A stretch of 64,000 nucleotides of DNA from NCBI GenBank assembly GCA_000165425.1, contig CT867990.1:62001-126000 (forward strand), given 5' to 3'. Below the pieces are notes generated by a model. The model saw only the letters and a program-made list of their open reading frames with translations, had not been told where the DNA came from and made no database searches. This stretch comes from Paramecium tetraurelia. Taxonomy: Eukaryota. A program made the translations under genes and the position numbers. This document shows positions 15,023 to 57,851 of the stretch, one piece after another (position 1 is the stretch's first letter; each line of letters starts with the position of its first letter).

Positions 15023-15489
15023 AATTAATAGAATTAGGTTTTAAATATGATAATTATATTGTCTATTAGAATTCTTGATAATATTCGTATTGCTATAAAA
15101 CACATTAATTTATAGGAAGAGTTAATAGCAATTGCGAATTCGAATTATCGCAAGCATTTTGTTGTCAGTAGTTTATCGACAATGAATCTAATGAATTTTT
15201 CATAAGCTTTGTTATGTTCATATTTATCATGAGAGTTTTCTTTTTGATTGCAAATTGTGATGAGTGGTGTGTTCAATGCTAATAGGAATTAATACGAATA
15301 AATGGTGTTGATCAGGTTATAAATTTTAAATTTTGAAATATATATATATATTGTTTTATAGTTGAAAATATATAGTAAATTTTTGATTCATATTGAGTCA
15401 GCAACAATATAAAATAATTATATATAGTGTTGTGCGGATAGAGAAAGATTTGAATTTTATTAATTGGATTTATATGTAATAATAAATTA

Positions 15490-26383: not shown

Positions 26384-28027
26384 ATGGGAGTTTGCCAAAC
26401 AAAAAAGTTAAACACAAAGTTAGACTCGTAAAGAGTGAAAACCGAAAGTAAGACAAAGATAGATCTGTCTGGTACCTAAGAGACTGAATTAAAAAAATCG
26501 CTTCATCAACATTAAGAGAAGCAAGCCAATACAGAAACCATTTGTATTCAAAATTTAGATTGTACAATCCCAGCAAGTCAAAGAGGTCTCGCTTTTACAA
26601 TGCCAAAACTATTGAATTCTCCTTAAAGCCTTAATAATCCTCTTTTAGAATCGACAAGTGCTTCTAAGAAGTATACTCTTATTGGTCAACATAAATCAAA
26701 TTATGTAATATATATATCTTATATATAGTAACTTTAAATTTTACAAAACAACAAAACTGGAATGCTTGTTTAAATGTAAAATATTCCAAAGCATATAGAG
26801 GGCAACGAGAAATATATTAATTAACTCCAAAAGATTTCAATTGTATTTAATTAAAATATCATTCTTTCAGGATCATCCAAATATCTTAAGAATCATCGAG
26901 ATCTACCAAGATAAAAGCAACTATTAAGTGATTTCTGAATACTTCAATGGATCCAATCTTTCAGACTTAATTATTGGAGAAGCCAAAGTATCAAAACCCT
27001 AAGTAGCTTAAATTTACGAATAAATTATATCAGCTATGTCTTATCTTCATCAAAAGAATATTGTCCATGGCAATTTGACTCTCAAATCATTTTAATATAT
27101 GAACCTTAATAATCGACTGGTTGTCAAGCTTACCAATTTAAAAACAATCTATTGCAAAGACTTAACAAATATTGAAGTTATAAAATTGCTCCCTCCAGAA
27201 TGTCTCTATCGTTAAGAACAATTTACAAAAGAAAGAGACATATGGACAGTGGGTTTGATTGGATTGATACTAAGAAAAGGTAAATTACCATATGAAATTC
27301 CATAAAATACTACTTAACAAATTATGATATAGATTATCAAAGATCATAAATTTAATTTCCAACATAAAAAGGATCAGAAATTCAAACATTTTCTAGAGAC
27401 AGTACTGTCTAAATATCCTTAAGAAAGACTTGATTTTGACAAATTACGTAAGCATGAATTTATAAAGTTTTATTCTAAGAAAAAAGCAAACACAAAAGTA
27501 TAATTACTCAAAAACTTCTTAACTAATAAACCATGCCGTCCCATCTAATAATTAATGTTAAGTTATTTTGGATAAGAATTCAATATAGAAGAGTATTTTG
27601 CTGCCTAAAAGCTATATATAGAAGCTAATACCAACAATGATGGTTCTTTAAGTAAATAAGAATTAATTAAACTATTTTACAATTACAAAATTAATAAAGA
27701 AAACATCGCTCAAAAAATAGATGATATATTCTAATAATTTGAAATAAATGATTAAATGGGAATGGATTAAAATAAATTTGTTTCTTTAACCTTATCTCGT
27801 TCAATCTTATTGACTCAAGAAAATATTGAAACATGCTTTGCTATCTTCTCATTCAACAAATCGGATATTTACTTGAAAGGATTGAAAAGACATTTACAAT
27901 GTGAAACTGTTGATATTAAATCAGAATTTGCATCTATGACTGATGATCTAAACTCAGTAATAATTTATATAATTTTTTTTAGCTTAATTAATAACAATTT
28001 GAATCTATGATGAAATTATTGAAATGA
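26384..28027 (+). CDS. Calcium-dependent protein kinase-like pseudokinase with EF-hands
   Basis: MGVC N-terminus; DHPNILRIIEIYQD, YLHQKNIVHGNL, KLTNLK, LPPE, DIWTVG; EF-hand ANTNNDGSLSKQEL. Confidence 0.8.
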
Positions 28028-35996: not shown

Positions 35997-36704
35997 TTAT
36001 ATATAAAATAATTATACAATAAGAATTCTTATACTAATCGTTTCAATATGATTAAGCCTATGGGAAAACCTTCAATTATCTAAAGAAAATTTCATGTCTG
36101 AATTCCCATCATTTTACTCATTGAGAAGCTAGTCAGATTTGTATAGAATATGGTTTGCATTTTGGAATTCATAACAATTCTCTTCATTTTCTGTCTTAGG
36201 GAATAAAGCTGGAATGATGTTTTGAGAATTGCAAATTATAAAATCTAAGAAAAAAGGGAAGCTTTCAAAAACATTAATTATTTTTATTAATTATCATTTT
36301 AAGCTATAGTTATAATATTATCAATAATATCTTCACTAATAAACTGTTAAAATTTATTGGATGATTTAAGAAAATAAAGTAGAGTTCTGGGTTGAAATAT
36401 GAATGGATAACTTCTGGGCTTGCTTGAATTTTCATATATTATACATTATTATTGATTTGTATAAATTACAATATATTAGTATTAAAGTATTAAAGTATTT
36501 AATATTTTATTTTTTATTTTGATATTTTTATTATATAAAACGGTTTTCAATAAAAATACATTAGAAAGGTCTTTAATTTTATCAATTTTATATATAAAAA
36601 CATTCAAAATTCTCGTAATCATATTCACAGAGCATCAAACATCAAATCCTAAAATTATTTAAAATTAATCTAGAGATATAATCAATAAACTTACTTGATT
36701 ATTT

Positions 36705-38275
36705 TCATACGCTGCAAATTACTATTTTAGTTACTGCTTTTTACTATGATACAATTACTGCATCTTTGAAAGAGAAATGAAGCCTTCTACGTCGGATAAT
36801 ATGCGAAATGCCTCCTTTAAATTATCAATAGTTATCAAAGTATTACGATCTATGACTCCTATTAAGAATTCCTAAAAATCAATTTCACCGTTTCTATTTA
36901 TATCTACACCTTTGAAAACTGTGTCTACATGTTCCTTGACTTCTTACAGATTAGAAAAATGGTTCATGTAGGCCTGAGTCAATTCTTACCTATTGATCTT
37001 ACCATCATGGTTGATGTCAAATTACCCAAAGATTTGATACAAAGATTATTCCTAATCAGATTGAAAGGTAGTGATCATAAACTGCAAGAAACAACATTAT
37101 AAGAATGAAAGAGCGTGATTCTGATCAAGTTATTTAACAATTTGATCTTATTCAGCCTAAGATTTTTCTATGTTGTGCCTAACCCATTAATCATTCAAAG
37201 CCAGATTGAGTTTGATTCTCTTTTTTGGATCACTTCTTAGGAATTTCTTGATAAAATCGATACTAGTTTTAGGTAGGGCATCTGTGTCAAATTCATCGGA
37301 GGCTGAATATTTTTAAATTGATTAAAGTAGTTCGTCCTTATTTGACCCTTTAAATGGAAGTTGCCCAGATAGCATTTTGTATAACATTATGCCAATACTC
37401 CATGTATCTCTTTCTGGTGTGTAGATTTCTGGTTATAGGATGGCTTCTGGGGCCAAATACATTAAATTATCTTTTGTAGAAATCATTGATTTAACATAAA
37501 TAGCCCTATAATCAACTAATTTAATGTAATTTGAATTAGATTAATTATACTTTTAAAAAGATTATAACGATAATCCACAATGATTCAGTTCTAATTTATG
37601 TATATACGAAATTAATTCGACTATCTATTTCAATACAAGTGCTGCTTATTACTATGTGTAAACTGTATTCGATAGATATTATTGCAGGGAGCCTCCATTG
37701 CAAAAGTCGTGAATAATTTAATAATTGGAAGCGTCCTAAAAGACTTCATCTAATTTTATTAAATTAGGATGGTTCTAAAGGTTTAGGGGTATAATATTTA
37801 CAAGTTATGTTTTGATAATAGATTCCACAAGTTGATCACCTTCTGAGGTTTTTGGAATGAATTCAGCCACTCTAATCTTACCGCTTAGATTGTGTTGTAC
37901 AAGTGCCAGTTATTCATTCAATTTTATACGACATTTAGATTGTTCTTTGTTCAGAACAGAATAGTATTTAGAGAAATTAGCATTTTTAATTGAAATCCAA
38001 GTTTTTAGAGTGCCCCTTTGACCACCGTTTTCAACGATCTAATCTGCCCAGACCATTCGCTTAACAGGTTTAGTAGATGGACTCGGAGCCATTTTAGCTT
38101 TTTGGTTTTGCTTGTTTGATGGTGCACCTAACTTATTAGTAGTGATGTTAGTTTCGGATTTAAAATTTCTTTAGACATCTGAGGTAGGGTCAAGTTGAGG
38201 AGATTATTGAGGTAGGATTTCGTGCTGTTCCTTTCGTTCTTGCTTAGTTTTACCTTTCGCTGAACATATTCCCAT
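36705..38275 (-). CDS. Calcium-dependent protein kinase-like pseudokinase with EF-hands
   Basis: MGIC N-terminus; HPNLIKL, CNGGSL, NHCGLSL, KLVDYRA, YLAPE, DTWSIG; EF-hands DINHDGKINRQEL and DINRNGEIDFQEF. 3' end approximate. Confidence 0.8.
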
Positions 38276-38370
38276 TAAAATTATTATTTACTTTTGGATT
38301 ATTTGTATTTAGATAAATATTGGTACATATAATAGCAGATTTTTATATAAATAAAGTGATAAATTATTAA

Positions 38371-41300
38371 ATGAATATTGAAGAGTTGAAGGAGTCATTA
38401 TAGAGATTGGTATAGTCATAGGAGTAAGTTAAAATGGATTATTAAAGTTGTCAGAATGATTTGGAGATAATATGGTAATAGATCCAACATTAAGTGGGTT
38501 TGGATTTGATATATCAAAGTGGAAAGGCAGTGATTGAATTGAGATAGTATGCGATGGGATGGAAGGTAAGTTTTACTGTGATTGAGGATAGTAAGCAAAT
38601 AGGATCTTGTCGCATATAGTGAAGGTGTGTTTAAGTGCGAAGGAACAGATAAAGGCATGGGAAACGATGAGGATTGTGATGGATCCAGACAAGCAAATAT
38701 ATAAATGTTATGAGTTGCATTAGATTGATGTAAATTAGGTATCAGTAATAAAACGATGAGATAGTTTTCACATCATGAATTTACACAGCATGAGTTTTGT
38801 GCAGAATTGCAAGAAGGTTAATAAGTGGATGCATTGTATGATGATGAGAAAGGAAATGTGATAGGTTGGTGTAGAGCGACGATTGACAAGTTGAATGAGA
38901 AATTTGTGTGGGTCAAATGGCATGAGAATGATGATAAGAGGAAGATTGTCAGATACTCCATGGATTTGGCACCATTTAAAAGCAAGGTTACAGATGAAGA
39001 ATGGCAATGGAGACATTCTCTATAGCCTGGAGATCTGATTGATTGTTTAGATAATAGACAATGGCAGAATGCTACTATTATTGCTGCATTGAAGGAGGAA
39101 GAAGTCGAATATATCGTTGGCTTTAGGGTTTATGATGAAAAAGGCAATCTCTATGATTAGATGGGCAAGAGATACTTCGGTTGGAATTCGCAATATGATG
39201 AAAGAATTCGAGCAGTTAGTCCTAGAATTCAGAAAAAAAATACCTTTTCTAAAGGTCAATATCCAATTCCTTATAGTCAGGAAGATATCATCCAGGATTG
39301 CAATGACTTCCTATATCCTGAGAATCACTATGCTATTCCCAGATTCTAGACAAAACAAACTCGTCGTTCAATTGTTCTTACTTAGATGATCAATGATTTT
39401 GGATCTTAAGGATTGTTTCAATATATTTTGGAATAAATCTAAGCTAAATGCACTATCGACTTTCTTCATCTTTATATGCAAGTTCTCAATAACATCCATG
39501 AAATGTTACACAGATAGTTTGTTAGTAATTATGTCCCTGCTTTGTAAGTTGCTGTGTAAAACAACATTTTATAGTCTACAGATAATAATCTGCGTAATTT
39601 CTCAGCTCAGAAAATTACAGACATTTTGCAGTCATTGTCCAATTTATTGAAAAGAGTGTACCCTATCTAAAGAAAATCAGAAATCATTGATAGATTTGAT
39701 TTAGATATTGCATATAAATGTTTCACTAGTGATTTTTTGGAGAGAAAAATCTAGGGATTGAAAGCCATTTAAGAATTGATCAAACGAACTAAAGACCTAT
39801 TTAATTAATATGGAATGCAAGAATACCAAAAGCAAGCTGCCATTCAAATGATACTGGAATGGTTGAATGAGAAGAAGATTTTTGAAACCTTATATGCTGG
39901 TTCAGGTAATTCCCATTTAGTTTAAAGAAGTGGGGAATTCTTTAAGTTCCTGATTGAGGAAAGAATGATTGGAATCCAGAACCTCAAGGATATTTGGAAT
40001 AGTTTAGAAAAGGCAGAATATGAACATAAATTGGCCATTTACAAATTATTTAAGGATGCCTCGAATTCTCTAGAGAAGGAATGGTTGGATTTCTTAACTG
40101 ACGAAATTTGTAACAGAGACCCTAAACAAGTGAACAAAGATGAATTGGATTTATTGTAAGATATTATTAAATCAAATCATAAGTATAAGGAGGGTTATAT
40201 TACAAAATGTTGTAATTACTATTGGAATGTCTTAAAGAATGGGTAATTGAATTAGACTCTTTTTGAGTACTATCTAGCTTAGTATATAGAGTAAGTGACA
40301 TCATTTGAAATGAGGCCACATAAGGGAGTACAAATTAAGATGATCGGAGAAAGCATAGTAAAATAAGAATCAGCTAGTATTGGATTGAGAGTGCTTATTA
40401 AATTGATAGAAAAGTTGGATATCTCGCCAGCAACTTGGGAATAATACACTCGTAATGGTGCACTAACAGATCTATAATCTTAATGTGGAATTATTGAACA
40501 AATATTTACATAAATTAGAGAAATCAAAAAGTAATAAATTAGCTTAGAGGAAATCAAAGTTAGAATGCAGTTTATATAAATGTTCTATTAGAACATTAGC
40601 ACTTATGAATATCGTCTAACATTCAATGTTATATCCACTCTATGGGAATTGTTAGTTTGCTAATCTGAATGTTAATCTGAAAAAGATCTAGTTTATAAAT
40701 GGTTTAGCTCATTGTCAAATTAGGATGGACAGTCTTAATTGACATCAATGGTTGAAATATCTGAACTTAAGACTTTTTTCATTTAGAAAATGGCTAATGA
40801 TTTGGCTCATTTGAATGAAGAAGGATTTAATTGTCTCAAGACTGTATTATCCACAATTAATAAATTTGAGAGTTTTGGTTTTGATGTCTTATGGTAAATA
40901 ATATTAGAAGGGGAAAATGAAAAAGTCTCTTAGATGGCTATTGAATATATCCATTCATTCTAAATGACTATTGAGGAATTATTTAATAAATTGTAAGAAA
41001 ATAAGATATAAAATTAAAAATTACTAAGATGTTTATTAGTATTAGAAGATTTCATAGATTAAAGTGAAGTAAATGGAGTTGGAAACTTAAAGAGTTTGAA
41101 TGCTCTCTCTTAAGGTGAAGAACTTTCAATCTAAATATAATATGAAAATAGTTAGTAAAGAAGATTTACAATAAAAATAAATGACAATTAAACAATTGTA
41201 GAATTACGATTGGCAATCAGTAAGGTGATTAAACTATAATGGGATGCCATAGGTTTGAATAGTCTTAAAGGTGAAATAAAGTTTACAGAGAATGGTAAGA

Positions 41301-44300
41301 TGATAAAGGATCTAAGATTAAAGAAAGATGAAATAATTATGGTTTTTAAAAGACAAGTGAAGGATGCCCCTGAGACATAATTATTGGATGGGGAGAACTT
41401 ATCAGAATAAGCTAAGGTAGTGTTCGCAGAAATCTTCAGTGAATATTCAACTGATGGCAAAATGACAAAAGAGAATTGTGCTAGATTTGTAACTGGATGC
41501 ACTGGTAATCCATGTAGTATTGATGATGCTAACATTTAACGAACATTTGAACAATATGATAGGGACAAAGATTAGATCTTAACTCTATAGGATTTCTATG
41601 ACTTTTATACTGATTCAGTCAGAACCAAAAGGTCGACTGTTTGGTTGAATTTACAAACCTTACACTATAGAAATGATTTAATAAGAGGAGATCGAGTACC
41701 TCTGCCTGAAATCAATGCTTAGCAATTACCAAGAGGATAGATTGTTTAAAATTAAGAATATTTAGAGTTGCTATTCGAATTCCTCTAAAATTCTAGCAAT
41801 GAGGTTCAAGAGAAAACTTGGTATCTATTAAGAAGATTACCACCTTCTCCTTAATTGATCAAGCAGATGTTAACATTTGAGAACATCACCTAACCAACTG
41901 ATTGGGATTCAATCTTAGTGAGCAGTCATTATAGATTGTTATACAGTTTGTATATTATTGAATTTCTGATGAACCAATAAGATTCCAATCATTTATAGGC
42001 ACTTATAGAGGATTAAGATATTCTCACATTAAAGGATAAATGGATGAGTAAGTTCTTGCAATTGGGGGGGTTTGATAGATTATTGCAGTTTTTCAAAGAG
42101 TATTAAGGTAAGAGTGTTAGTACCTTATCGCAAATAGAGAAGGAGATATTATCATTTTTATTAAACACATTTTAAAATTATATTATCGCTGCTTGTGCTG
42201 CTTACATTCCTAATCTGTATAAGGCATCAAGAGGAATTTAATTAATTAAACCATTGGATTAAGTGTTATTGGATATTAGATAATCAGAAGAGTCGGAAGA
42301 ATTTCAACTGTTGGTTTAGAAATTGAAGGAAAGTAAATTAGGAGATGATATTATAGAGAAAATCGAAAATTTCATCCCTGTTTTAATACATCTGATACAA
42401 GAATTGTTAAAATGCAATGAGTTGGAATAGGAAGACAGATAAATTATTGAACATAGCATAATAATTGTAATAGTTATATTGCTGAATAATCAGAAATTAT
42501 TGGCAACAAGCATTGAAAACATTGAATTTATCAACATATTTTTCAGTGGCATCTTTACTGGTACATCTGATACCTTGCGTAATCTATTTAGCAGAGCAAT
42601 TCTAGTACTTTGCCATGAAAGTTAAAAGAAAAACAATTAACCAACAAGAATCATGTTATAATAATTGATAGTGATGTAAAACTCTTAGGGTAATTCAGCC
42701 CAATATTATGAATTATTGAGTCAATTAATAGATAGTGCTTTTGAGACTGAAGAATCTTAACAATTCATTGATTATTAACAGCTAAGTCAATAAATGTTTC
42801 AAAATTTAATGAATTACAAAAGTTAGGAAAATAGATAGAAGAATACTCCTACTGATAAAATATTGGTTGGTTTGTTGAATCTTTTGACTAAGTTATATAG
42901 ATTCATTAAATAACCAATTGATGATATTATATTCAATAATTGTCTCTTCAGCATGTCAGAAGACAAGGAGATTAAATGCAAATCTGTAGAAAGCAGACAA
43001 GTAGCCTTTAAATTGCTCCATAATCTAGCTTAAAAATAGAACATTGATACAATAGTAACAAACCTACAACAACTAAGTTAAAAAATACCAACTATAAATA
43101 GATGGAATTACATCCCCTCAAGTGATATGAGAAGTCACCTTGGGTATTGTGGTATCAAAAATCTCAGGTGTATTTGTTACATGAACGCTATGTTATAATA
43201 ATTTTACATGATAAAACCATTTCGATATGGCATTCTGTAAGCTAATGATCACAAAGATGTCGATTTGTAATTGAGTAAAACAGGATTCACATATGATGAT
43301 AATGTATTACATCAGTTGCAATAAATGTTCAGTTATTTAGAACAATCAGATCGTATTGATTACAATCCTTAAGAATTTTGTGCAGCATTTAAAGATTATG
43401 CTGGTGAGCCAGTCAACATATTTGTTTAATAAGATGCACAAGAATTCTTAAATATGATTTTTGATAAGTTGGAGAATCTGTTGAAGGATACTGTCTATAA
43501 AAACATTATGGATGGAGTATTTGGTGGAAAGACTTGTACATTGATACAATGCTAAAATTGTAAGGTAACAAAAAGCAAGGAAGAAATATTTTACAATTTA
43601 TCTTTACCGATCAAGAATTTAAAGAATTTGTAGGAGTGTTTTGATAAATTTGTTTAAGGAGAGCTTATTTCTGATTTCAAATGTGAAAGTTGTAATTAGA
43701 AAGTGGATGTGAACAAATGTTAACAATTGGCTCATTTGCCAAATATATTAATTTTACATCTCTAAAGAATTGTATTTAATTTAGACACTTTTATGAATGA
43801 TAAGATCAATACAAGATTGGAATTCCCAATCGATTTAGATCTGCAATAATACACGATTAACAAAGATCAATGCACATCATATAAATTGGTTGGAGTAGTT
43901 GTTCATGTTGGTTCTGCTGATGTAGGACACTATTTCAGTTATATAGATATCAAAAATTAAGATCAATGGCTAGAATTTAATGATCATAAAATTAAGGAAT
44001 TTAAATTAAAGTAAATGGAACAAGAATGTTTTGGAGGATCAAGTAATTTTGACTATAATGATGTTTGGGGAACAGGGTTTAGAGAGAATTCTCAAAGTGC
44101 TTATATGCTCATTTATGAAAAAGTTCAGAAGGATCAAATATCTTTAGTATTCAATAATGAACAAGAACTGTAAAATCACATAGATTTATTTGATAATTAC
44201 ATAATCGATCAGAACTAAAAGAATGTATTATAGGTTGACTATAACTCATTGAAACCTTATATTCCAACTGAATATCAATAGAAAGTGAATTGCGATAATC

Positions 44301-46374
44301 AGCAATTTTTATTAGAACGCAACTTGTTCAATTAAGATTTCTTGAAATTTATTCTAGATGTCAGTGAATTTGTAAATGAAAGTAATGCATCCAAGATGAT
44401 AGATGTGTTAATTAAGTTTAATTACGATCTGTTGTCAAGAGCATATGAGAATTCATTGATGGATTAATTTAATGCCAAAATTTTATAATTAATTTAATAA
44501 TATCCAAGTATCAGTTACCTTGATTTGATTTACTTTGGTAAATTAAGCAAAGTAGTGGATTTACTATTAGTGTGTCCTGAAGCAAGGACACGAAAACACA
44601 TTAGCAAATTGCTATCAACTCTATTTAATCAAGCAATTTAGTTAGAAGGCTAAATCACATAGAAATTAAATGAAGGATTAGATCAGTTATTCTTAATGAT
44701 TCAAGATTAAGTACCTAAGAATTGGTCAAGATATGAGTTTTATTTTCAATTTTGGTTAGATTTTTTGTAAGGAGGTAGACCTTAATAAGAATATTTAATG
44801 AAAAAAAACATGGTCTTGTATATGATAGATTTTGTACTAGATAAAAGCAGTCCGTTGTAATTATATGAGAAAAAAGTTTAAATGGGTAATGCCTATGTGG
44901 CCATGAATATACAAATCTAACTTCAAATTGTAACTGCTCTTTTGAAACAAAATCAATAATTAAGTTTGAATGAGAAAAAATTATTATATTCTCCTAAGTT
45001 CTACGATAAGATATTGAAAACTAAAGTGGAAGATATCTTACCTGTGATATTAAGGTTATCTTATAAGAATAGGTACTTCTCTGAGATTATTTCTGGATGT
45101 ATTATGCGTGGTATGTCAAATGGGGATGTTGATGAATTCAAAAACTATTTATCTGTAGCTAAATCGTTTTTATTGATTGAAGATGATCTCTAAATTGAAA
45201 GATTGGAATGGTTAATTGGGATTCCATCATCCAAACAAAAGGAGACCACCAAGATTTATGATAATCAATTTTCCGATATAGCCTCGTTTGGTTTATATGG
45301 TCTATCAAGTTTGGAAGAAGACTATTGGACCTTTGCCAGTCCATTGGGATGGTCAAATTGTTTGTTTGATTACTTCTGTTCTCATAGGATGAGTAAAAAC
45401 AATGATATTCAATGTCTATTAATTCTTAAGTGTTGCCTCTCCATAAGTTTAGAAAGTCCAATTTGCTTCAATTACATCTCAAATCTGCCATGTGTGAATT
45501 ATCAATATGTAAATCAATATAATCTATTTATAGAAATATAATGAAGAAATATTCAAGTCCTTTTTAGAAACCTTCATTTTAGATACAAAAAGATTCTATT
45601 CTTAAAACAATCGTAAGTAGGAATCTGAAGAAGTTAAACTACTACTTGAAGAGTATCAAAAGAGATTAGATTAAATTCGAGATCCCACTAAACCTCAGTA
45701 TGATTATATCATTGGCAAATCTGTTGAAGTTGCCAAAGTAACTAAACTTCTGTATCTATTCAATCCAACCACCAAAGAGGAATTGACAGCAAATGAAGCA
45801 TCTCCAAACTTTAATTAAATCAAATCATAAATTGATGATGGAACACTCCACAAAATCATCACATTAGAAGTAAAAATCATTGTAATCGTAGGAAAAAGTC
45901 TACACTACATATGTTTGTGATAATCTACCTACTGGTTAAACCAATGAGGCATTACCTCAATAATATGTAAAAGGAACTTAAATACATCATTTTTCTGTTG
46001 ATCCAAATTCTGAAGCAGCCAATTTCATCCAATCTAAGGCATGGAGTGCAGAAAATGAAGACAAAGCAGTCGTATCTAATTCAAGGTTAGCTGAAACTGT
46101 CAAATAAGTTCAACTGATCAATAATACAAATCGAAATCTACATGTCATTCTTGAAATCAAAGGACCATAAACAAGTCATTACATTCCTACCTCCAAAATC
46201 TAATCTTTGATGAATCCTAAAATTATTACAACTATGTTCACAATTATCAAATAGAAAAGTCAAGATGAGTTCCCAAAATTAGAATTGACTTTGTAGTATA
46301 AAAAACAGGAACCTAGATCAGAATCTTATCTATATATATCAAATATAAATGAAATGAACTTGGAGTTGTTATGA
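38371..46374 (+). CDS. Giant ubiquitin C-terminal hydrolase (C19, USP9X/USP24/USP34-like)
   Basis: Cys box GYCGIKNLRCICYMNAMLQQ, QQDAQEFLN, His box YKLVGVVVHVGSADVGHYFSYI, WLEFND; about 2600 codons. Confidence 0.92.
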
Positions 46375-46603: not shown

Positions 46604-49600
46604 TCACTTAGCAACTTTTTAACATTATTTCATTTTTGGTTTCCCATAAAAAAAATTATGATTTTCAGTACCGACACTCTCATTCAACGAATTAATGCTA
46701 AACCTGTCTCTATGAGGTGATAGACTAGAATAATTAATTTAATTGATTTTGTGTTCTTCATTAATAAGTGAGTCAGTCATTGCCCCCTTACTGTGTTCAT
46801 TGAGATGAGAAGAGTCTAGCATAGGGTTATGCAACTATTTTTATTCAATGGCTTCAAAATCAACAAAATTATATTCTTGCTTTTTCTTGATTGTTGATTT
46901 ATGTTTGATTGGACCAATTTGAAAGCGGTCAGTCTTTTGCGAATCCGGTAGAAAAAGTATTCTACCTTCTGAGTGATTATTATAGCCTTGATCTAGAAAC
47001 TTTAATTTTTTATTAGCCTTATGTGATTCAATATACTTGGAAACCTAGACTTAGAAAGTTTCAACATCTTCACTATTTAATGATATTTGATGTTATGATT
47101 CCATTATTATGTCTTCTTTCAATGTATCCTCATCTTGTTCGCTTTAAGAACTAATTTATATCAATTATTTGGGGTGATTGGAATTTTCACGTGAAATAAT
47201 GGCTTCCTAAATTTTTCCAATCGTCTTAGCGGAGTAGGATTTAAAAGTTCTAAAGATCATTAAAAGAAATAGATATTCCTATAAAATATTGAAATTTCCC
47301 TTAAGATGCATCATTTCATATATTGGATATCTTCTATCCAAAATATCCTAAATAACTTGAAAATAACTTACAAGTCTCTTGAAATGCAATCTGAAACGTG
47401 TATCTTTATCAATCTACTTCATTAGTTTAATGCCTTCAGGGTGGCCAGTTCTAAAGATCTAATCTCTATAAACATATCGAATAGTCTCGTAAAGTACTTC
47501 TTAAAAATGAATGTAACCATTTAAATCAGCCTTGATTTTAAAATTAGAAGCACTTTTGGCAGCATCCCAAATATTATCACCTGGAGCTGATCCTAAAGGC
47601 GGTCCCAATTCTAATAGAAAATGTGCTAAATATCTGGAATGCATCTAGGCTCCTTTAGTTTCTGTAGAATACTTGCACCAGGTAGTTCTAAAGGGATCAA
47701 TATTCTCGATGTAGGTTTATAAGACACTATTCTAAGAATTAAAGAATTCTACAGTTTAAATATATTGATACTTTCAAATTGATCTACCAATGCTGTAATA
47801 AATAGATTGAATGCAACAAAATTGGAAATAAGAACAAATGTGTAGAAGAATATATTTGCATAAATCCATTTAACTCCACAATAGCTAGGTGTTTCAGGTG
47901 TACAGTATTAATTGCGTTCTGAAACATCTATCATTATTCTAATCCAATTGTTTTTCGTACAGATCTTAAACAAAATCAGTAATGCCTTGCCAATATTAGT
48001 GAAGTTCATGTAATCTGTTACATATGCTCCTTTCTCAATCATACCGAAATACTCACATCCAATAAATCCATAAAATAACAGGATTGAAAAGAAGAAACAT
48101 AAAATTTATAGTAGAAATGAAGCAGAAAAGTTCAAAATTCTGAGCAATCTAGTCAATCCTTTGAATTATTGAATGATTAATAGAGTTCTTAGATTTCTAC
48201 AGGCAAATGCTAATCTGAGAATCAGGAAGTATTTATCATTGATCGTGGATTTAAAGTAGTACTAACTCCAATTAATCGTAAGAAATAGAATCAAATCGAT
48301 CAGAGCAATAATGCCCAAGATAAATTCAATTTCTCTCCAAATGTATCCCCAATACCTTCTAATACCAAATGCCAATATTTTTAAACATGTGTCCAGAATT
48401 AAAAAACAACTGAGAGCATGATATATGTATTCTAAAGTTTATAACAATTCCAACGAAGCATCATCGTAAAAGAAGGTTAAAATTCCTATAAATAATTATA
48501 ATCTCTTAAATACCAGTGTTGATAAATATCGTCAATAAGATCATTCTTTCATATAGACTTTATTTTATTATATTAGAAGCCAGTTTTCTGATAAATGACT
48601 TTGGAGGATCTGAATAATTTGGGACTTCCTTCTAAATGATCTCGGTTATATTGGCAAACAATTATTGATCATTTGTTAATATTTGTTTCTGTAATTTAGT
48701 CTTATAAGTTTGAAAATTGATGAACAAAATTCCTGCAAAAAAGCCAAGAAAGAAGAGCACTCCAACCAAGATAAATAACATAAAGTAAATTAAGGTCACC
48801 CATCTATTTCCATATAGAATGGGCCCTTGATCCTCTGCTCTTGAATTCAAACAAATTTGCATGATGTACACCCAATCATCGCAGGCTGTCATTCTATATA
48901 GAGCCAACATCGCATTTCCCATATTATCGAAATTGTAGAGGTTATTTACCCATTCTTCACCTTCCTCAATGCATTCTTACTTGTTGATTCCAAAATTCAA
49001 AGGATATTTGCAATAACTCATTTTATCCTTATAAAGCATGACGCCGAAGATTGCAAATATTAGCCACACCATTATTTACACAAATAGAATATTCATCAAA
49101 TCAACAATTGACTTTGATATGGCACTGTTGATATATTTGAGTTATTCGAATAAATATAGGAAACGAAAAGGTCTTGCGTATTTTATAGCCTTCAAATATT
49201 GAAACGCATCATATTTCACAATATAATTGGTGATGTAGCATAACTAATAAACAAAATCTATGAATCTCCAAAACTCACTTGTAAAACTTCCTTTATCTTT
49301 CATAAATCCTAATGAGATAATCTTTAAGATTGAATCAATTAGTAACAATATATTTGTAGTCAACTCTACATAATTTGATATTTAAACAATTAAATCTTTC
49401 GAGATCTTATTCTCGTAATCAAAATAAGTGTGGACACACATATTCAAAAGTGCAATAAAGAAAGTAAATTAAATTAGAGTGATGTACAATTAATAATTGA
49501 TACATCGATAACATAACTTTCTGAACTAGTTTTATTTACTAAAAATATATAATGAATTCTCACTCTCATTATTAGTAAAAAATTGAAATTTAGCGAATAG

Positions 49601-52600
49601 TTATTCTAATAATAATTCAATTCTTGCCGACAAATCAAAAAAATTATTATTCTAAATGACTTATTTTTCATCATCTTACTTAGTATCTTAAAAAACATCA
49701 TTCCCATTTGTATTCTTTTAGATAATTTCTTTAGGAGTAGCAACCTTATCACTGCTTAACGTTACTTCAGTCAGATTATCATTCCCCTCTAAAATTGAGA
49801 ACTATGAATCTAGTCTATCCTCTCCTGATTCCGTCTCATTCTCGTAGGAAGAAAATGAATCTAACACTATAGCCAAAATGAATCCTATTGTCATTAGATT
49901 TAGGACGTAAACGGAGATAACACTAAAAAAAGTAGTGCCAATCTTACTACTATATTGCGATCCTAGCATTACCATCCCAAACCAATCTTCATTTGCAGCT
50001 CGTACAAAAACTGTTAAAAAAGCAGCTGCAAGATCATCAAATGACTATTGTAAACCAAAATCCGTGTTAATTGGGAATTTACCTTTGTATAAGTTCATCC
50101 CTATAAAAGCAAAACAGAAAATTAAAGTAATCATCAAAAATATTAAATTGAGAAAAGAAGGAAGGGACTTTTTTGTAATCTTTGCTATCTTTAATGCGAA
50201 ATTATTATATTTGATTATTCGATATATTAGAAGTGCTTGACTAGAGTTTAATAAATCAAGATAAATGTTTCCTTTGCCAGAGTTTTAATTCACATATACT
50301 GATTAAATTATAGAGCATGTTAAAATGAAAGTATCAACAAAATTGTTGGCCCTTGTGCAAAATCTCTTAATGCCTTAAAATACAAGTTTTAGAAATAACT
50401 CACCAAGTAGGATAAATACAAAATAATCGTTGAGTTGTCTGATGATATTTTAATCTACATAACCTATCATACTAAGTAAAAGGATATTGATCAAAACTAT
50501 TAAATCAAAAAAGATTTGAGCAGATCGGTTCCTCAACATCAAATTTAAATTTTTTGATATTAAACTCCATACACATGAGAGATCTGGTGTTTTCCATTAA
50601 TAAATATCAATATTATTAAGTTAATGAAATATTTTTATCGTTGATGGAATCTTCTATTTGGATTGCAATACGCAATTTCCTGACCAATTATTTTTGTAAA
50701 CTATTCCTTATTTACATTCTTCCAATCTGTATTTAACAAACAAGTCCTCAAAATCCTACATATCTTCTTAAATTTCAGGTATTTACCTGTTGATCCTTTA
50801 TTTTACAAAATCTAAATCATAATAGGTGATTTTGTCAACTTTTTCTGTTGTATTATTACTCTTTTAGTTATTTGGGATAATCTTGATGACTTTATGATCA
50901 TAACTATTATTTTCAATTTTCACTGCTTTTTCATTTTTCTCACTTTTTTCATTATTTAATTGTTATTTCTATTTTGATTTCTATTTTATTGGTAAGCGAC
51001 CATGGGAATGATTGAGAGAGTTTTAATTCTACGATTTAATAAAGGAATAATCTGATTTTTTTAATCGATAGCAATGATTTAATACAGATTTTCTAATGAA
51101 CTCAAATTCCCTTTCCCTCTTCTTTTGTTGTTACTCATTTCTGATTTTGAAACTAAATATATCACCCTCTGAAGTGCTATTATATTAAAAGTACTTATTA
51201 ATAACGATTCTCCAAGAATACAAAGGCACTTTTTTGAAGGTCTAAATATAAAACAATTTTAAATATTCTTTATCAAAGGCATCATTTTAAATGAGCTTCT
51301 GCATGAACTGTTCCTTGTTCTATTCAAATAAGAATAGCTTTTCTAATTTAAAATTATCTATTAAATTTTCCAGTTTGCTCATGTTTGATTTAATACCTCT
51401 TTTTCGATTTTTGATTTCATCCTATTCTTTGGTTTGTCTGGCAGATAAATATTTAAATTTGTAATTTATAACCTTCTAATTATTATTTTAAAGGATTGTT
51501 TTAGCATAGGTAGTTTACTCATCTACCTCACGAGGTTTTTTTCTTACCCAATCCTACTATGAATTGTTCTTCAAATCAAAATCAATTGAGTGATCTTTAA
51601 TAATTCTTAGATTCAAGATAACTTCAATGCTTGCAGATAATTTTTATATGTCTTCATGCTGATATTTCAATAGTGTTTGCGAATAATAGATTTTAAGAAC
51701 AGCGATGATCAAATTGGCTCCAAAAATAGCAATGATAAAAATAAGAAAAATAAAGTATATGATGGCAAAATCATGAAATGTGAGCATTGCTAAATAGATG
51801 GGTTCTGTCCATTCATTGAATATCATCAATCGGACGACTTCTTAAAAAGAATAAAAGATGTCATCAAAATTAGTTGGAACATTTGGATTAGTTAAAGATT
51901 TGCAACATATCATAGAATAATCTTAGCATTCCAGATTATATCCGCACAAGTAGTTGGTTTAAATACCAGATTCAGCATGATAACATTTATATAGGAACAA
52001 TCCTTAAAATAAATGCATTCCGAATAAAGCAAAGAAGTATGAAAATATAACTACAATAAGGAGCGATTCCAGTAAAAATCTTAAGGAGTGCTTTAATGCA
52101 AGAAGCATTATCTGTAATCTCTTACTAAATACGCTAATAACTGATAATATTTTCAGCAATCTTGCAGTTGAAAAATCAATGATCATCAAAGTTGGGTAAT
52201 AATAATGGAAGGAAAAGAGAATGAGAATGATCATATCAAATACATTCTGTAAATCCCAAAAGAAATCTATTACGCCTTAGCCAATTAGTTTGAGAATGTT
52301 TTCTGCAATAAAGAAGAATAGTATAACTAAATAATATATTGAAATTACTTTATTTTTATTATCTAAGGCTGGCCTAAACATCAGTCTATAAATTTTCACT
52401 TTAACTTTCTATGAATACCATTATATTAAATATGATTGAAATTAATACCAAAATAGTAAAGATACGATGATTTATTATTTTATTGGCAGTGTTTGCAATG
52501 ATCCTGATGATGAAAACTATAGTTTTTCTTAGATAGACTAGAGGATAATTATCCCAATAAAATTGATAGTCTTTAACTATCCATTCGTAATCTTCCTTGC

Positions 52601-53858
52601 TTTGCCAAATAAGTGGATACGGATCATAAATTGGGTCTCGCTTATATTTTCTTTGATATTTTTATATTTAATGATCCTATTATGTAGTTGGATCTCTAAT
52701 TGTTTAGGTAAATTGCTTTTCTAAATATTCCTCCTCTTCATCAACTTCTATTTCAGATGATTGTTCGGATTAAGCAACAAAATTAGAATCGTCGTTGCTT
52801 AATTCAAATTTAAAATTATCAATCAGTAATTTCATTCTGTCACTCATAAATCCATGGTTTTGGGTTTTGGTAAATACGTTATCTAGTATTGATGTCATAT
52901 TAATATTGGAGGGACTATTTTGAATATTTTAGGGTTCATATGCTCTGTTTCCAAAGAAAAGCGATTCATTCTAAGCAACAGAATAGACACTCATTTGATC
53001 TCCGTCTATTCCTTTCAATTAATTATCATCTTTATAGTATTGGTTAAATAATTGCACAAAGGTTTTTCTGACTTTCTATTTAATCCTATTTCTTCCAACA
53101 GGCACAATTTCTGCACATTATTTTTCGAGTTCTTCAATTATTTATTTATATTAGCTTTATTCTTATTCAGGTATTCCTGCTTAATCTAATATTTTTACTA
53201 AGCTTTTCAACTCTTATGTATCAGAAACATTTTTCGATGTAGAAATAGATCTTTCCCTGTTATATTTGGTTGAAAAATTTATTTTACTCTAAAAACTACT
53301 TTTTTTGGAATACTATGACAGTTATTTGATGCTTTTCATACTTTTCATTGTCTATTTCATTTGGCTAGTCTAACTGTTCTTTAGAAATGAGGTTGCTTTT
53401 TATTTGCTAAATATTACAGGTCAATACCTGATTGATGACAGCTACTAATGCAGAGTTTTATGTATAAATTCCATCTGTTCATCTATCACTTTGTCGTAGT
53501 TTATTATCGATGCTGGTCCTTTCTACTGAATTTTGCTTTTTTTAGATGCTCCATCTGAGGAGGAATTGCTATCTGAAGATTCTGATAGGAATAAGTCTTA
53601 ATATTCATAAAATAAGTTATTCTGTCTATTCTTCTAGCTTTAGAGGGTTGCTTTTCTTTATTAACTAAGATTGTCGATAGACAATTTTGATCTTTGATTT
53701 CTTGTAATTTAAGATTGTGAGCCTATTTTCGAAGATTGCCTCTTTTGAAGCCTACGACTGGTTTATTCAGGCGTATTATGAATATTCTTATTATGGCTTA
53801 TTAGTTGGTCATCCATAATTGAAGACCTTCGATCCTATTGAATAATATTAGGAAACAT
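46604..53858 (-). CDS. Four-domain voltage-gated cation channel alpha subunit (Cav/Nav superfamily)
   Basis: Four S1-S6 repeats; pore loops IFNEW, AANEDW, TACDDW, CTKNNW; C-terminal GPPLG and YIHFQEVL; long disordered N-terminus. Confidence 0.92.
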
Positions 53859-53892: not shown

Positions 53893-56800
53893 TCATATCA
53901 CCTTCTAATTTAAATACTAATTTAAAATATCCTATTTTGAACCCAAAGCAACGATTTTTCCTTAATCCATAACCATCACCTGATCAAACATATCAAGCAA
54001 CTCTAATTTATGAGTTATTGCAATAACAGTTTTATCCTACTAATAACAAGATCATAATACTTTCATAAATAAATCAAGAGTCAAATTGATTAATTAGCAA
54101 TATTAATTGTCTAGGTTCCCTGTGCACTCATCCAAAATTACGATCCTTCTCTTTTACAATAATACTCGACACAAAACTAATAACTATTTTTCTCCCAATG
54201 ACAAATTAGAACCATAAGGTTCTACTTGATATTACAACTCTTCCAATAATTTTACTTAAGATAGCCCATATTTGGAGAGAGTTCTGATTATTTCTATAGG
54301 ATTATAAGCATTATTGGGATCAATATTCTATTAGATTGTGCCTTCGAAAACAAAAGGATCTTAAGACACAACAGAAAATAGAGATCTTATTCTATTAATG
54401 CTTGTGTGTCTATTATCCTATCCAAGTACCTTTAAAGATCCTGAATACGGTTCAACTAACCTTGTGATACAATGCATAAGACTGGTCTTTCCAGCTCCAG
54501 TTCTGCCAAGGATAGCAATCTAAAAATAGAATTATTGCAACATACTTTTTATCTCTATTTTAATTTGAATGAAACATCTGTTAATACAGTGGCATTTTTG
54601 TATTGTAAAGTCACGTTGCTTAATTCTAGGACATTTTATTCTTGCAATTCTTACACACTCTCAACAGAATTTATGGTCATCATTTCAATTTAACTGATGC
54701 TATCATGATCACTGAAATGAATATCGTCATTTCTTCTATCCATTGGATTCTCAAAATCGCTGTATTATTGAGTGGACAAATCTTCCTTTGGAATATTATT
54801 AATCAAAGATAGACACCTTTCAAAATAAACATTGTTAGAATAAAATGATTAAAATGATAGGATGAAACTAGTAAATCTTTCACCTAGACTTACTGCCAAA
54901 TACATTGAGATGGTTGCAGATTCCTTATTATCAATTTTGTAAATGTACTAATTATTGATTCAAAATATATACATTAACTATCAAAATGCATACATACATT
55001 ATCAGCATCAAAAAGCAAGTTATTTGGATGAACCAAGCAGATAATGCAGCAGCACAAATCGAATTCTTTGTATAAACATTAAATTGTTAATAAAAGCATG
55101 ATACTTAATTTTAAGTTTATTTGCAATGTCTATTAAATAAAATACCTTAATGAGTTTGAGTTAATGTGTTCAGCAAGGGAGATTTAGAAATTGCTTATAA
55201 TCTGGACACCTCTAAATTGATTCTAATGTATTTCAACATATATTATGTTTGCAACAACAAATAACAAATCAAAATTGGGTATGATAACGCACTTGATAGA
55301 AATAAACATCCTAATACTGATGCCATAAAACTAAAGATGCTATCAAATAAGGATGATATCAAAGAAGGAGTATTCATATCTAATCGTATTAAATAACATC
55401 ATACCGAATTGGAAAATATCATTTGTCATTCTATTTTTTATTATGCTAACTAAAGTAACATTATAAAAATCAGCTACTGATGCCTTTAATAGATTATTGA
55501 TAATGTTATTATGCAGAAGCATAGAAGCAGTCACTCCCTTTGAAGTTAAATAGATTCCACTAAATAGAGTGAACAAGGCCATCAAAATGTGAGAGAGTGG
55601 ATAAAATAATAAAAACTATTCGACTGCATCTGCCTTTTATTCTTCAGTGGACTGATCTGAATTGGAAATCTCAGTGATGGATTTCAATTTCAATTAATAA
55701 AATGTTGAACAACACATTCCTGATATACAAAATAGAATTGTCAACACTAAAGTCTAATATCTTCCAAATAATTGGTATAGATATTTGAAAATCTCCATTT
55801 GAAGACTTCCCAAAGATCTATCTTCACTTTCCATAACCATAATTTATTATTTATCAATTAGGCTATACAATTGTCTATTAGATTGCTAATTGATTGTAGT
55901 TTACTAGACTTATTAGACTTATTAAACTTATTAACCTTCAATTAAATCAAGAGAATCTAAGTCATTTGATTAAGAATTCCCTTAAAATTTATCTAAACTG
56001 CCATTATAGGTGATCGATCCATCTTCAAGTTAAATAATTCTGTCACATACTTTAATCTAGTTTACATCATTGCATGTCATAATTATAGTTTTCTTTTCCT
56101 TTTGACTAATTTAGTACAATGCATCCATTAATTTCTTAGCAGTTTTATGATCTAAAGATTCAAAGGGACAATCAAGCAAATAGATATCGCTGTGCCTATA
56201 TAAAGTTCTTGCTAAATGAACCCTCTTTCTTTGTCCTCCACTTAATGATTGACCGTCTTCTCCTACTTCACTATTATGTCCACTCTCCATCCTTTGAATG
56301 TCCTCTAACAATTAAGTTGTTTTTATAATTTCAAGATATCGATCCAATTCCATAACTGACTCATCAATGATATTTTATTTGATAGTTCCTTAAATCAAAA
56401 AAGGTTCTTATGATGCTACTGAAACACTTCCATTTAGGTATACAAATGAATTCTCAATTGTTTTTTCTAATTCTCCCAATAAACTATTCAATAAAGTACT
56501 TTTCCCTGATCCATTTTTTCCAACAATCACAATGAATTCCCCTTTTTATATTGAAAGATTGATATTCTTTAATTAAAATTGATTTTTAGAATTTCTCCAT
56601 CTAAAATTGCCTTCCCTAATTAAAATTTAGACTGATTATGCTTGCATCATTTATTATTCTACATCCTTAGATTAAATGAAATCCATATATCTCTTTATTG
56701 ATGTTTTAGCCATTAATAACTAACCCAAATTGTATGGGATAAAATTGACAGCCGAAATTAATTAAGCATAATTCTAAGTAACCATCAAGACAGATTTTAA

Positions 56801-57851
56801 ATTAAAGATGTCAAAAATCTTCATTGTAAAATACATAACTCCCACTGGAACAATAGAAAACGATGCCTTCACAAAAAAGGATAATTTCTATTAGATGGCA
56901 ATGTTGGACATCTCGATATTTCTTTTGTCTCTAATCTTTTATAAGTCTAACAATTACTCGATTGAAAAAGAATTTATAATAGCAATTCTGTTTTATTGTC
57001 AAAATGCCCTTCAATAGTTCATCCATATTTGATACACGACTATCTCTTGATTTCATTATCTTTTTTTACAAACTAAAATATCAAATTATATTTACTTAGA
57101 ATATATACTTCCATATATCAATGAAATTCCTACTTGGATAACCATTCCAATCAAACCGAAGGATGCTGCCAAGCCGACTGTTTAAAAGTATATATAAATG
57201 GCTCCACAGATTTAAAATGGTGTTAAAAATAGAGATACTCCGCAATCAAACAAAATTGTTATTTGTGGAATATCGATTTAAAACAAATTTATTATTTCTG
57301 CTTAGGAAGGCAATGGTAAGCATGCAGTAAATAATTTGTGATACAAAATAGAAGACAAAGCAGCTTACACCTCAATCTAGACTTATTTCTATTAATTATA
57401 AATGATGCATTACTAAATAAAAGCTTATTATGGAAACTTAACAATAAACTGACATTATCCATCCAGTAAACAACAAGGTGGTTTTTAAAAATTACCATAT
57501 ATCCAACCCAGGTGAATCAAACAGTTCAACAATCATGTTTATAAGAAAAGGATTTAACAACAAAATTCCCATAAGTCCAACTTTCAGCAAAACTATGCAA
57601 ATCCATTGTTTTGGATAACTTTTTAATAGTGAATATATCAAGCTCTCTTTGTTTAATTGAAATTTGATGGTCTAATGTTCGATACTCTCCTAGGAATTGA
57701 TATTGAAAACGTCTTTCTACTCCAAGTTTCTCTGATGAGTTTATACAAATTAATTTAACCAAGTAAATAAATATGTAGTTATTCCCTTTTTGTTAGTGTA
57801 ACATTCCAATAATTCCGATTATTAATGTTCAAAATTCTAATACTCTAACAT
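53893..57851 (-). CDS. ABC transporter, ABCC/MRP family (TMD-NBD-TMD-NBD)
   Basis: Lasso YLFTWL; NBD1 GKNGSGKST, LSGGQRKRV, IYLLDCPF; NBD2 GRTGAGKTS, LSLGEKQL, IVILDECT, ITHKL; several tiny introns. Confidence 0.92.

Follow-up and report, generated by a model that had tools for sequence, protein, structure and literature searches.

What a four-domain channel conducts when two of the four positions of its selectivity filter are neutral Asn, and what opens it, is the question raised by a gene in the macronuclear DNA of Paramecium tetraurelia. The gene lies in the 64,000-nucleotide stretch analysed here (the window), and its extent and introns are as follows.

53858 to 46604, minus strand: whole four-domain P-loop channel gene, located by tblastn of the deposited protein (P0004) on the window and by motif coordinates
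53858 and 46604-46606, minus strand: ATG start and TGA stop, respectively
53407..53427, minus strand: intron 1, 21 nt, GTA...TAG, in frame, with a stop inside it; once it is spliced out, the translation agrees with the orthologs P0005 and P0006
52327..52348, minus strand: intron 2, 22 nt, in domain I between S1 and S2; the junction between LRQQKQ and IILFFF is the same in the deposited protein and the orthologs
48486..48513, minus strand: intron 3, 28 nt, in S1 of domain IV; junction in agreement with P0004
47749..47771, minus strand: intron 4, 23 nt, directly past S6 of domain IV; the junction between ALVDQFE and KFFNSQ agrees with P0004 and the orthologs

Gene structure, product and transcription

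The window translation was 100% identical to XP_001424527.1 (GSPATT00028164001), a protein of 2368 aa in which domains I to IV (DI to DIV) span ~1,550 residues. Translation with the ciliate code (table 6) gives an open frame of 1453 codons on the minus strand (48461-52822) with overlapping frames on either side, and these adjoining frames connect through tiny GTA...TAG introns. Spliced at four clean, tiny introns, the reading frame stays open for ~2,370 codons. Pfam family PF00520 (Ion_trans) was matched at 6.8e-77 in the long exon (three stretches) and at 2.7e-22 in the domain IV exon, and as a single polypeptide with four Ion_trans (6-TM) repeats in tandem the protein belongs to the four-domain cation channel superfamily. 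The top relative of solved structure was human Cav3.2 (9ayg; HMMER, 5.3e-58 for the long exon and 2.3e-24 for domain IV), with Nav1 and Cav1/2 next. A representative-library search gave no close relative: its best match was 27% identical, two short fragments were 47% and 55% identical, and identity to full-length proteins outside Paramecium reached at most 28% in DII-DIII.

Three oligo-dT RNA runs contributed 270 reads located in the gene (80, 121, and 69). The first mate was on the plus strand in all 270 and on the minus strand in none, which is what most stranded libraries would give for a minus-strand RNA. Depth over the gene was very low, mostly <3x, and no splice junction rose above the reporting threshold in the reads of the three runs; the introns therefore rest on frame logic, the orthologs, and two RNA-library contig ends, exactly at 53428 (intron 1) and exactly at 48514 (intron 3), which are suggestive only.

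Pore loops and selectivity filter

The filter position was defined as the residue two before the conserved Trp of each pore loop, which gave the following assignments.

51800..51826, minus strand: domain I pore loop MIFNEWTEP, filter Asn at 51815-51817 (AAT), then HFS+1 Glu; aligned to ITLEGW of Cav3.2
49976..50002, minus strand: domain II pore loop RAANEDWFG, filter Glu at 49988-49990 (GAA), then HFS+1 'beacon' Asp
48863..48889, minus strand: domain III pore loop TACDDWVYI, filter Asp at 48878-48880 (GAT), then HFS+1 Asp
47935..47961, minus strand: domain IV pore loop CTKNNWIRI, filter Asn at 47950-47952 (AAC), HFS-1 Lys at 47953-47955 (AAA), HFS+1 Asn

The loops MIFNEW, AANEDW, TACDDW, and CTKNNW are as the first-pass annotation of this DNA had written them, and all filter codons fall within 47940-51870. 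That annotation had read an N/E/D/N filter, a next ring of E/D/D/N and a Lys before the domain IV site, and had asked whether alignment would instead put the adjacent acids at the filter and whether orthologs keep the pattern. Its reading was borne out on both counts. The gapless HMMER alignment with Cav3.2 (9ayg) paired N with E in domain I, E with E in domain II, D with D in domain III, and the Asn of domain IV with the Asp of Cav3; the adjacent acids were not shifted onto the filter. The NFD/NFT anchor and the Trp are 21 residues apart in each domain, as in Cav3.2 (aligned strings), so a one-residue shift that would place the neighbouring acid at the filter is unsupported. Five carboxylates remain around the pore, two in the inner and three in the outer ring, with one Lys beside it.

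Conservation and origin of the two Asn

N/(E or D)/D/N and the Lys preceding the domain IV Asn are invariant in 9/9 family proteins from five aurelia species, with Glu in domain II here and Asp in the paralog lineage. The beacon Asp at HFS+1 of domain II and the pore-loop Trp at its conserved place in all four domains (WWWW) are likewise present in all nine. The T-K-N of domain IV recurred in 8/8 short fragments covering that loop, down to 50% identity. The outer ring is less constant than the inner, with E or D in domain I and D or E in domain III, where one P. primaurelia protein has K. Identity to the P. sonneborni ortholog is 87-94% in the membrane domains and 68-75% in linkers and tails; the corresponding values for the paralog are 67-71% and 36-51%.

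As a background sample we used 137 other proteins with four recognised loops from the representative-library search. None of the 137 has Asn at any filter position; taken with the 9/9 and 8/8 counts above, this makes the pattern more than a chance one. Just one of the 137 has three acidic outer-ring (n+1) residues; its filter is QEEE with an outer ring of DDDG, so that its domain I filter residue is neutral too. The 11 sampled proteins with an EEDD filter (proteins unnamed) all have Lys or Arg at the HFS-1 position of domain III, and the Lys is thus not in itself exotic. EEDD is the filter of Cav3.

A sister group of channels (P0182-P0186), 36-40% identical over DIII, DIV, and the tail, carries Asp in each loop that was recognised; all four loops (D/D/D/D) are visible in two of the five, the DII loop having not been picked up in the other three. 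In a FastTree phylogeny, for which the program warned of long branches and which is the only tree computed, support was 100 both for the monophyly of the Asn clade (9 rows) and for its sister relation to the D/D/D/D group. Within the Asn clade, five rows form an NEDN clade and four an NDDN clade, and both contain several species. The D/D/D/D channels share with the Asn family their four-domain architecture, a conserved C-terminal region, and N-D-D in domain II (AANEDW in the NEDN gene itself), whereas they have Asp at the DI and DIV filter positions where the N/E/D/N channel has Asn. Loop by loop, D-N stands against N-E in domain I, D-G against D-D in domain III, and G-D-D against K-N-N in domain IV. 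As the nearest sister group is D/D/D/D, the two Asn are derived and predate the NEDN/NDDN duplication. The inner ring has changed from an ancestral D/D/D/D to N/E/D/N by neutralisation of domains I and IV to Asn, and in domains I and III a carboxylate has arisen at the next position outward, which makes the outer ring E/D/D/N.

Voltage sensors and C-terminal tail

The S4 segments and the tail motif correspond to entries in the supplementary tables of PMC5824947.

52121..52171, minus strand: S4 of domain I, STARLLKILSVISVFSK, 2/5 charge positions of the Cav2 reference filled (alignment with P0012); string in Table S2
50210..50257, minus strand: S4 of domain II, DLLNSSQALLIYRIIK, two innermost charges alone remaining (same alignment); string in Table S2
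49151..49201, minus strand: S4 of domain III, QYLKAIKYARPFRFLYL, K-K-R-R at every third position; string in Table S2
48166..48222, minus strand: S4 of domain IV, ILRLAFACRNLRTLLIIQQ, three Arg with irregular spacing; string in Table S2
47234..47290, minus strand: IQ-like motif of the C-terminal tail, NILQEYLFLLMIFRTFKSY, entered under Paramt11 in Table S3 as its IQ motif; kept in orthologs and paralogs

In the alignment to the Cav2 reference, domains I and II have charge-depleted S4 segments and domains III and IV retain their S4 charges, the register of the domain IV segment differing between the MAFFT and HMMER placements. No Pfam IQ family was found in the tail at E<=0.01, and the tail alone gave no solved-structure match at E<=1 and no Pfam family. 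A local profile of the family tail matched the C-terminal tails of further four-domain channels, also unnamed, from the sample (E ~1e-15 at best) and did not match a fish Cav2-like protein.

Classification and published record

The gene is Paramt11 of PMC5824947 (Pozdnyakov, Matantseva, Skarlato 2018), without sequence difference; S4 strings and accession XP_001424527.1 match the supplement of that study, and the paralog P0007 (XP_001455025.1) is its Paramt16. In its tree, Paramt11 stands with Paramt16 at the base of subclade Ic in ciliate clade I, a subclade described as having R/K-poor S4 and an IQ motif and as likely voltage-insensitive. The N/E/D/N and N/D/D/N filters are named there "with an unknown selectivity type"; the N/E/D/N filter has thus been in print since 2018, and the sequence fact is not new. 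What the present analysis adds is the conservation in five species, the directly checked D/D/D/D sisters, the outward carboxylate shift, the per-domain S4 charge counts, corrections to the gene model as deposited, and the RNA data. A literature search by gene and protein identifiers gave nothing on permeation, gating or localisation of this protein.

Placement in subclade Ic agrees with the position in a Paramecium-only clade next to the D/D/D/D channels (PMC5824947 tree and FastTree) and, at motif level, with the charge-poor S4 of DI and DII and an IQ-like motif without detectable pre-IQ. The filter departs from the dominant D/D/D/D of Ic; since PMC5824947 lists N/E/D/N as an exception within Ia/Ic, the gene is a variant member of Ic. 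The region encodes an intact, transcribed, and selectively maintained four-domain P-loop cation channel of this subclade.

Several other assignments were rejected. Cav3 shares with this channel the Glu of DII, the Asp of DIII, the DII beacon Asp, and the DIV HFS+1 Asn, but has filter Glu in DI, filter Asp in DIV, and HFS+1 Gly in DI and DIII; with filter agreement in DII and DIII only, all four Cav3 S4 segments charged, and a low-voltage-activated (LVA) Cav clade separate from ciliate clade I in the PMC5824947 tree, T-type membership does not hold. NALCN and fungal Cch1 resemble the channel in their four domains, lowered S4 charge in some domains, and non-EEEE filter. However, the NALCN/Cch1 filters contain Lys (EEKE/EKEE), in NALCN as a member of the filter ring (EEKE; PMC5824947, section 7), whereas here the filter positions are without Lys and the Lys precedes the filter by one residue, and NALCN was matched far more weakly than Cav3.2 with the same query (1.3e-09 versus 5.3e-58). 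By the published filter, the gene does not belong with the Paramecium ciliary channels CaV1a-c either, as PMC5824947 states that the ciliary voltage-gated Ca2+ channels carry E/E/E/E. The first-pass annotation had set permeation against that of the classic ciliary Ca2+ channel, which is the wrong comparator for a gene in Ic with D/D/D/D relatives of R/K-poor S4. A reading as a pseudogene or annotation artefact was discarded on the evidence of frame, conservation, and RNA. Asn in the filter ring also occurs in an aphid sodium channel with a DENS filter, for which the accessible part of PMC4332693 suggests loss of classical selectivity; as described there, that channel is of the animal Nav1 type, consists of two subunits, and has its one filter Asn in domain III. 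Its relation to the Paramecium channel is at the superfamily level only.

Ion selectivity and gating

The first-pass annotation had proposed that permeation is altered, the channel being, for example, monovalent-selective or non-selective. Judged from the pore loops altered permeation is plausible, although the retained DII beacon Asp, the three outer-ring carboxylates, and the basic HFS-1 residue in domain III of EEDD proteins weigh against a monovalent-selective or non-selective pore. The explanation that we favour, with a probability of about 0.55, is a maintained subclade Ic channel whose filter changed from D/D/D/D to N/E/D/N, with lowered Ca2+ affinity and weak voltage gating. Two inner and three outer carboxylates together with one Lys would still make a cation pore that binds divalents, its Ca2+ affinity would lie below that of EEEE or DDDD channels, and more monovalent cations would pass. 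As five carboxylates including the beacon Asp remain, the pore may still be permeable to Ca2+. Gating probably depends on voltage only weakly and through the domain III and IV sensors, because those of domains I and II have lost most of their charges, and the putative IQ-like motif may confer modulation by Ca2+/calmodulin.

The beacon Asp and the three outer carboxylates could, however, bring high-affinity Ca2+ binding back, and if so the favoured explanation is wrong on the reduced affinity. The channel would then still be essentially Ca2+-selective, with its high-affinity site rebuilt one residue outward (E/D/D plus the inner E and D), an alternative that we regard as unlikely yet deserving of serious weight. 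Presence of the beacon Asp in 9/9 proteins favours it: according to the accessible part of PMC10120453, this residue governs Ca2+ versus Na+ selectivity, its neutralisation rendering an animal Cav Na+-permeable and its addition rendering a bacterial Nav Ca2+-selective, and section 7 of PMC5824947 considers acidic n+1 residues important for Ca2+ selectivity. The single background protein with three acidic n+1 residues also has a neutral DI filter residue, which hints at compensation. Yet the inner ring is down to two carboxylates, when neutralisation of a single EEEE glutamate in Cav1.2 already lowers Ca2+ affinity markedly, and Lys at n+1 of domain III in one family member indicates that the outer ring is not strictly kept.

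Much less probable is a Na+-preferring, Ca2+/calmodulin-activated, and nearly voltage-independent channel forming the basis of the Ca2+-dependent Na+ current of Paramecium. Two neutral filter residues, the depleted S4 charges of DI and DII, and the putative IQ-like motif would suit it, and Na+-selective calmodulin-activated currents are described by electrophysiology only in the part of the literature located, where a search for RNAi-based gene identification gave a review only. The case is circumstantial throughout, the pore retains five carboxylates and the beacon Asp, ~20 other subclade Ic genes also combine an IQ motif with poor S4, and other channel families could carry the current. We give hardly more than a token chance to a decaying or non-conducting paralog, either a gene on its way to becoming a pseudogene or a channel-like protein that acts as sensor or scaffold and passes no ions. 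Many four-domain paralogs exist in Paramecium after whole-genome duplications (34 such channels are listed in PMC5824947), RNA depth is low, and two voltage sensors are degenerate, but the long open frame with clean introns, membrane domains conserved far above linkers in orthologs and paralogs alike, pore loops nearly invariant in nine proteins of five species, and a transcript of the correct strand all speak for a maintained channel.

Significance

The gene might supply the molecular basis for a Paramecium conductance, such as the Ca2+-dependent Na+ current or the hyperpolarisation-activated Ca2+ current; the passages located in the literature name no gene for the latter. The Ca2+/calmodulin-activated Na+ conductance has been recorded by voltage clamp and in excised patches since the 1980s, and the same portion of the literature names no gene for it. 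It is a long shot that GSPATT00028164001 (NEDN) and GSPATT00021260001 (NDDN) are the gene pair for the Ca2+/calmodulin-activated Na+ channel. If they were, the half-neutralised filter would pass Na+, the IQ-like tail would bind calmodulin, and the charge-poor DI and DII sensors would account for gating by Ca2+ and not by voltage.

With the sequence fact published, physiology is the remaining question, in a host for which voltage clamp, RNAi, and behavioural read-outs are routine. Models of four-domain selectivity are usually based on a few animal filters (EEEE, EEDD, DEKA, EEKE), and a natural, conserved filter with two inner Asn and three outer carboxylates would probe the share of each ring in the choice between Ca2+ and Na+.

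Gene structure and expression

The minus-strand gene encodes an intact, conserved and transcribed four-domain channel with an inner ring (the selectivity filter) of N/E/D/N and an outer ring (the residue following each filter position, HFS+1) of E/D/D/N. The window is AT-rich (G+C 24–34%), with open frames under the ciliate code only. A 1453-codon open frame (48461-52822, minus strand) has overlapping frames on both flanks, and four introns of 21–28 nt, each GTA...TAG, join the frames into one gene.

53858 (ATG) to 46604-46606 (TGA), minus strand: channel gene
53407-53427, minus strand: intron 1
52327-52348, minus strand: intron 2
48486-48513, minus strand: intron 3
47749-47771, minus strand: intron 4

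Pfam places three Ion_trans matches in the long exon (6.8e-77) and a fourth in that of domain IV (2.7e-22); the N-terminal 352 residues and the tail had no Pfam match. Across the region searched, the product is 100% identical to a P. tetraurelia protein of 2368 aa (P0004), recorded as XP_001424527.1 / GSPATT00028164001. This deposited model departs from its orthologs at three sites, all leaving the pore loops unaffected and all probably annotation slips. At the first (53300-53430, minus strand), residues ~145–175 are read in another frame and the 21-nt intron 53407-53427 restores ortholog-like sequence; at the second (51177-51194, minus strand), 18 nt coding KYFQY- are spliced out in the model and kept by all orthologs; at the third (47348-47371, minus strand), an in-frame 24 nt stretch (GTAAG...TTTAG) is retained in the model and absent from the ortholog proteins.

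Three oligo-dT RNA runs labelled P. tetraurelia gave 80, 121, and 69 reads over the 7.5 kb stretch, all with the first mate on the plus strand, as fits minus-strand RNA in most stranded libraries. Read depth was mostly <3x, higher toward the 3' end, and at this depth the runs yielded no splice junctions at the reporting threshold. In a fourth RNA library, contig ends fall exactly at 48514 and 53428, the edges of two exons, which is suggestive only as support for the introns.

Neighbouring genes

Directly upstream on the same strand lies an ABC transporter gene (55346-56998, minus strand; PF00005, 2.3e-23). A P. sonneborni record of 3603 aa (P0181) carries an ABC transporter fused to a second NEDN channel copy, which suggests that gene order is conserved, that the annotated model reads through, and that P. 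sonneborni has an additional channel copy. Elsewhere in the window, a single frame of ~2270 codons (38732-45544, plus strand) encodes a USP9X/UBP24-like deubiquitinase (UCH, 2.1e-52; ARM_UBP24_USP9X-Y, 2.7e-14), and there are three protein kinase genes (36638-38767, minus strand; 319-1683 and 26619-28010, plus strand), the first of which has an EF-hand pair at its C-terminus and resembles a Ca2+-dependent protein kinase. Two divergent frames of ~480–507 codons (11627-13147, minus strand; 15457-16893, plus strand) have clear mutual similarity by eye, share the strings VCENIW.QQLP..IKKP and SYFVSDFLD, and match no Pfam family at 1e-5; they look like a local paralog pair with hydrophobic N-terminal halves.

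Pore loops and filter register

The filter residue is the one two before the Trp of each pore loop.

51815-51817, minus strand: domain I filter Asn codon, loop MIFNEW
49988-49990, minus strand: domain II filter Glu codon, loop AANEDW
48878-48880, minus strand: domain III filter Asp codon, loop TACDDW
47950-47952, minus strand: domain IV filter Asn codon, Lys just before, loop CTKNNW

The closest solved structures are T-type channels, with Cav3.2 scoring 5.3e-58 against the long exon and 2.3e-24 against domain IV; Nav1 and Cav1/2 come next, and the NALCN match to the long exon reached just 1.3e-09. HMMER alignments to Cav3.2 are gap-free from P-helix to Trp and pair the domain I Asn with the Glu of ITLEGW, the domain II Glu with the Glu of TQEDW, the domain III Asp with the Asp of SKDGW, and the domain IV Asn with the Asp of TGDNW. 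In both channels the Trp lies 21 residues from the NFD/NFT anchor in each of the four domains, as counted on the alignment, so a one-residue slip placing a neighbouring acid at the filter is unsupported. The N/E/D/N filter and the Lys before the domain IV Asn, as proposed in the first-pass annotation, are thus borne out by the loop codons, the gapless alignment and the spacing; in the sequence alignment to Cav3.2, the neighbouring acids are not shifted onto the filter.

Conservation and origin of the Asn filter

Homolog searches recovered a family of nine full-length proteins from P. tetraurelia, P. pentaurelia, P. primaurelia, P. sonneborni, and P. octaurelia. Five have filter N/E/D/N with outer ring E/D/D/N, and four have N/D/D/N with E(D)/D/E(K)/N. 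The domain I Asn, the domain III Asp, the K-N-N of domain IV and the domain II HFS+1 Asp are invariant in all nine, and the filter is conserved as N/(E or D)/D/N with the domain IV Lys across the five species. Fifteen further short proteins match domain IV and the tail, and all eight that span the domain IV loop read T-K-N across the filter position, even one with just 50% identity (STKNGW). The P. sonneborni ortholog is 87–94% identical in the four membrane domains and 68–75% in linkers and tails; the corresponding values for the P. tetraurelia paralog XP_001455025.1 are 67–71% and 36–51%.

The nearest proteins outside the family (P0182-P0186, Paramecium) share 36–40% identity over domains III, IV, and the tail. 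They have Asp in every loop recognised; two of the five have all four loops and read D/D/D/D, and the domain II loop was missed by the profile in the other three. In a FastTree phylogeny of 27 rows, which drew a program warning about long outgroup branches, the nine Asn-bearing proteins form one clade (support 100) that divides into NEDN (n = 5) and NDDN (n = 4) branches, several species in each; its sister is the D/D/D/D group, again with support 100. Relative to that group, domain I has gone from D-N to N-E, domain III from D-G to D-D, and domain IV from G-D-D to K-N-N, and N-D/E-D in domain II is unchanged; carboxylates are thus shifted outward and away from domain IV. The filter Asn codons (AAT, AAC) are a single G-to-A step from an Asp codon, which does not prove the mutational path.

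A background sample was assembled from the best 150 of 4503 matches (exhaustive HMMER search, domains II–III query) plus other retrieved proteins, and pore loops were located with a small profile; 146 proteins had four loops, 137 of them outside the family. EEDD is the Cav3 filter. Among these 137 (best 150 of 4503 and others), filters were EEEE (n = 80), EEDD (n = 11), and DEKA (n = 4), Asn occurred at no filter position, and just ten had no more than two acidic residues in the filter, the four DEKA sodium channels included. All 11 EEDD proteins have Lys or Arg at HFS-1, the residue just before the filter, in domain III, so a basic residue there is not in itself unusual; in domain IV it is rare (1/137). 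Three acidic HFS+1 residues were likewise found in 1/137 of the same sample (best 150 of 4503 and others), a QEEE protein with DDDG. In that protein (P0065, representative library) the domain I filter residue is Gln, which is neutral, and it may represent a separate, independent pairing of an uncharged inner residue with additional outer carboxylates.

Prior catalogue and voltage sensors

Thirty-four P. tetraurelia four-domain channels were catalogued by Pozdnyakov, Matantseva, Skarlato (2018, PMC5824947). There, Paramt11 has accession XP_001424527.1 and four S4 strings identical to those of the present gene, Paramt16 is the paralog, and in the supplement tree the two branch basally within subclade Ic (ciliate clade I). 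The sequence is therefore already in the literature, and the N/E/D/N channel is known as a catalogued variant. The literature searched contained no paper naming GSPATT00028164001 or XP_001424527 and no functional study of the channel. The 2018 text describes Ic channels as having R/K-poor S4 segments, a mostly D/D/D/D filter and an IQ motif, calls them "likely voltage-insensitive", and mentions certain Ia and Ic channels with filters of other type, giving N/E/D/N and N/D/D/N "with an unknown selectivity type" as examples. An IQ-like string tabulated there is present in the tail; none of the Pfam IQ models matches it.

S4 charge positions were counted against two aligned references, P0012 (Cav2-like, from a fish) and P0011 (Nav1.5-like, from a bird). 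Domain I fills two of five positions, domain II retains the two innermost charges only, domain III has K-K-R-R at every third position, and domain IV has three Arg in a register that differs between MAFFT and HMMER. Acidic residues of S2 and S3 were found in all four domains, and the paralog has the same S4 pattern. We read the domain I and II sensors as degenerate and those of domains III and IV as plausible, and with two of each the voltage-insensitive label is not established.

Putative permeation properties

The interpretation in the first-pass annotation is partly supported: its residues and their conservation hold, and its proposal that permeation is altered is plausible but contestable. 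The channel could instead stay Ca2+-selective through its outer ring and the retained domain II HFS+1 ("beacon") Asp, a view that published statements on this Asp (PMC10120453) and on acids at n+1 (PMC5824947) support; we regard this as rather unlikely, yet worth weighing. Far less probable is that the NEDN/NDDN pair would be the Na+ channel that patch recordings have shown to be activated by calmodulin: the literature searched names no gene for that channel, but the basis for the assignment is circumstantial, and the features concerned are partly common to ~20 other Ic genes. The reading we favour, with moderate confidence, is a cation-conducting pore that bears five carboxylates plus one Lys and should still attract divalent ions. 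Compared with EEEE or DDDD channels its inner site would be weaker, and more monovalent current would therefore be expected.
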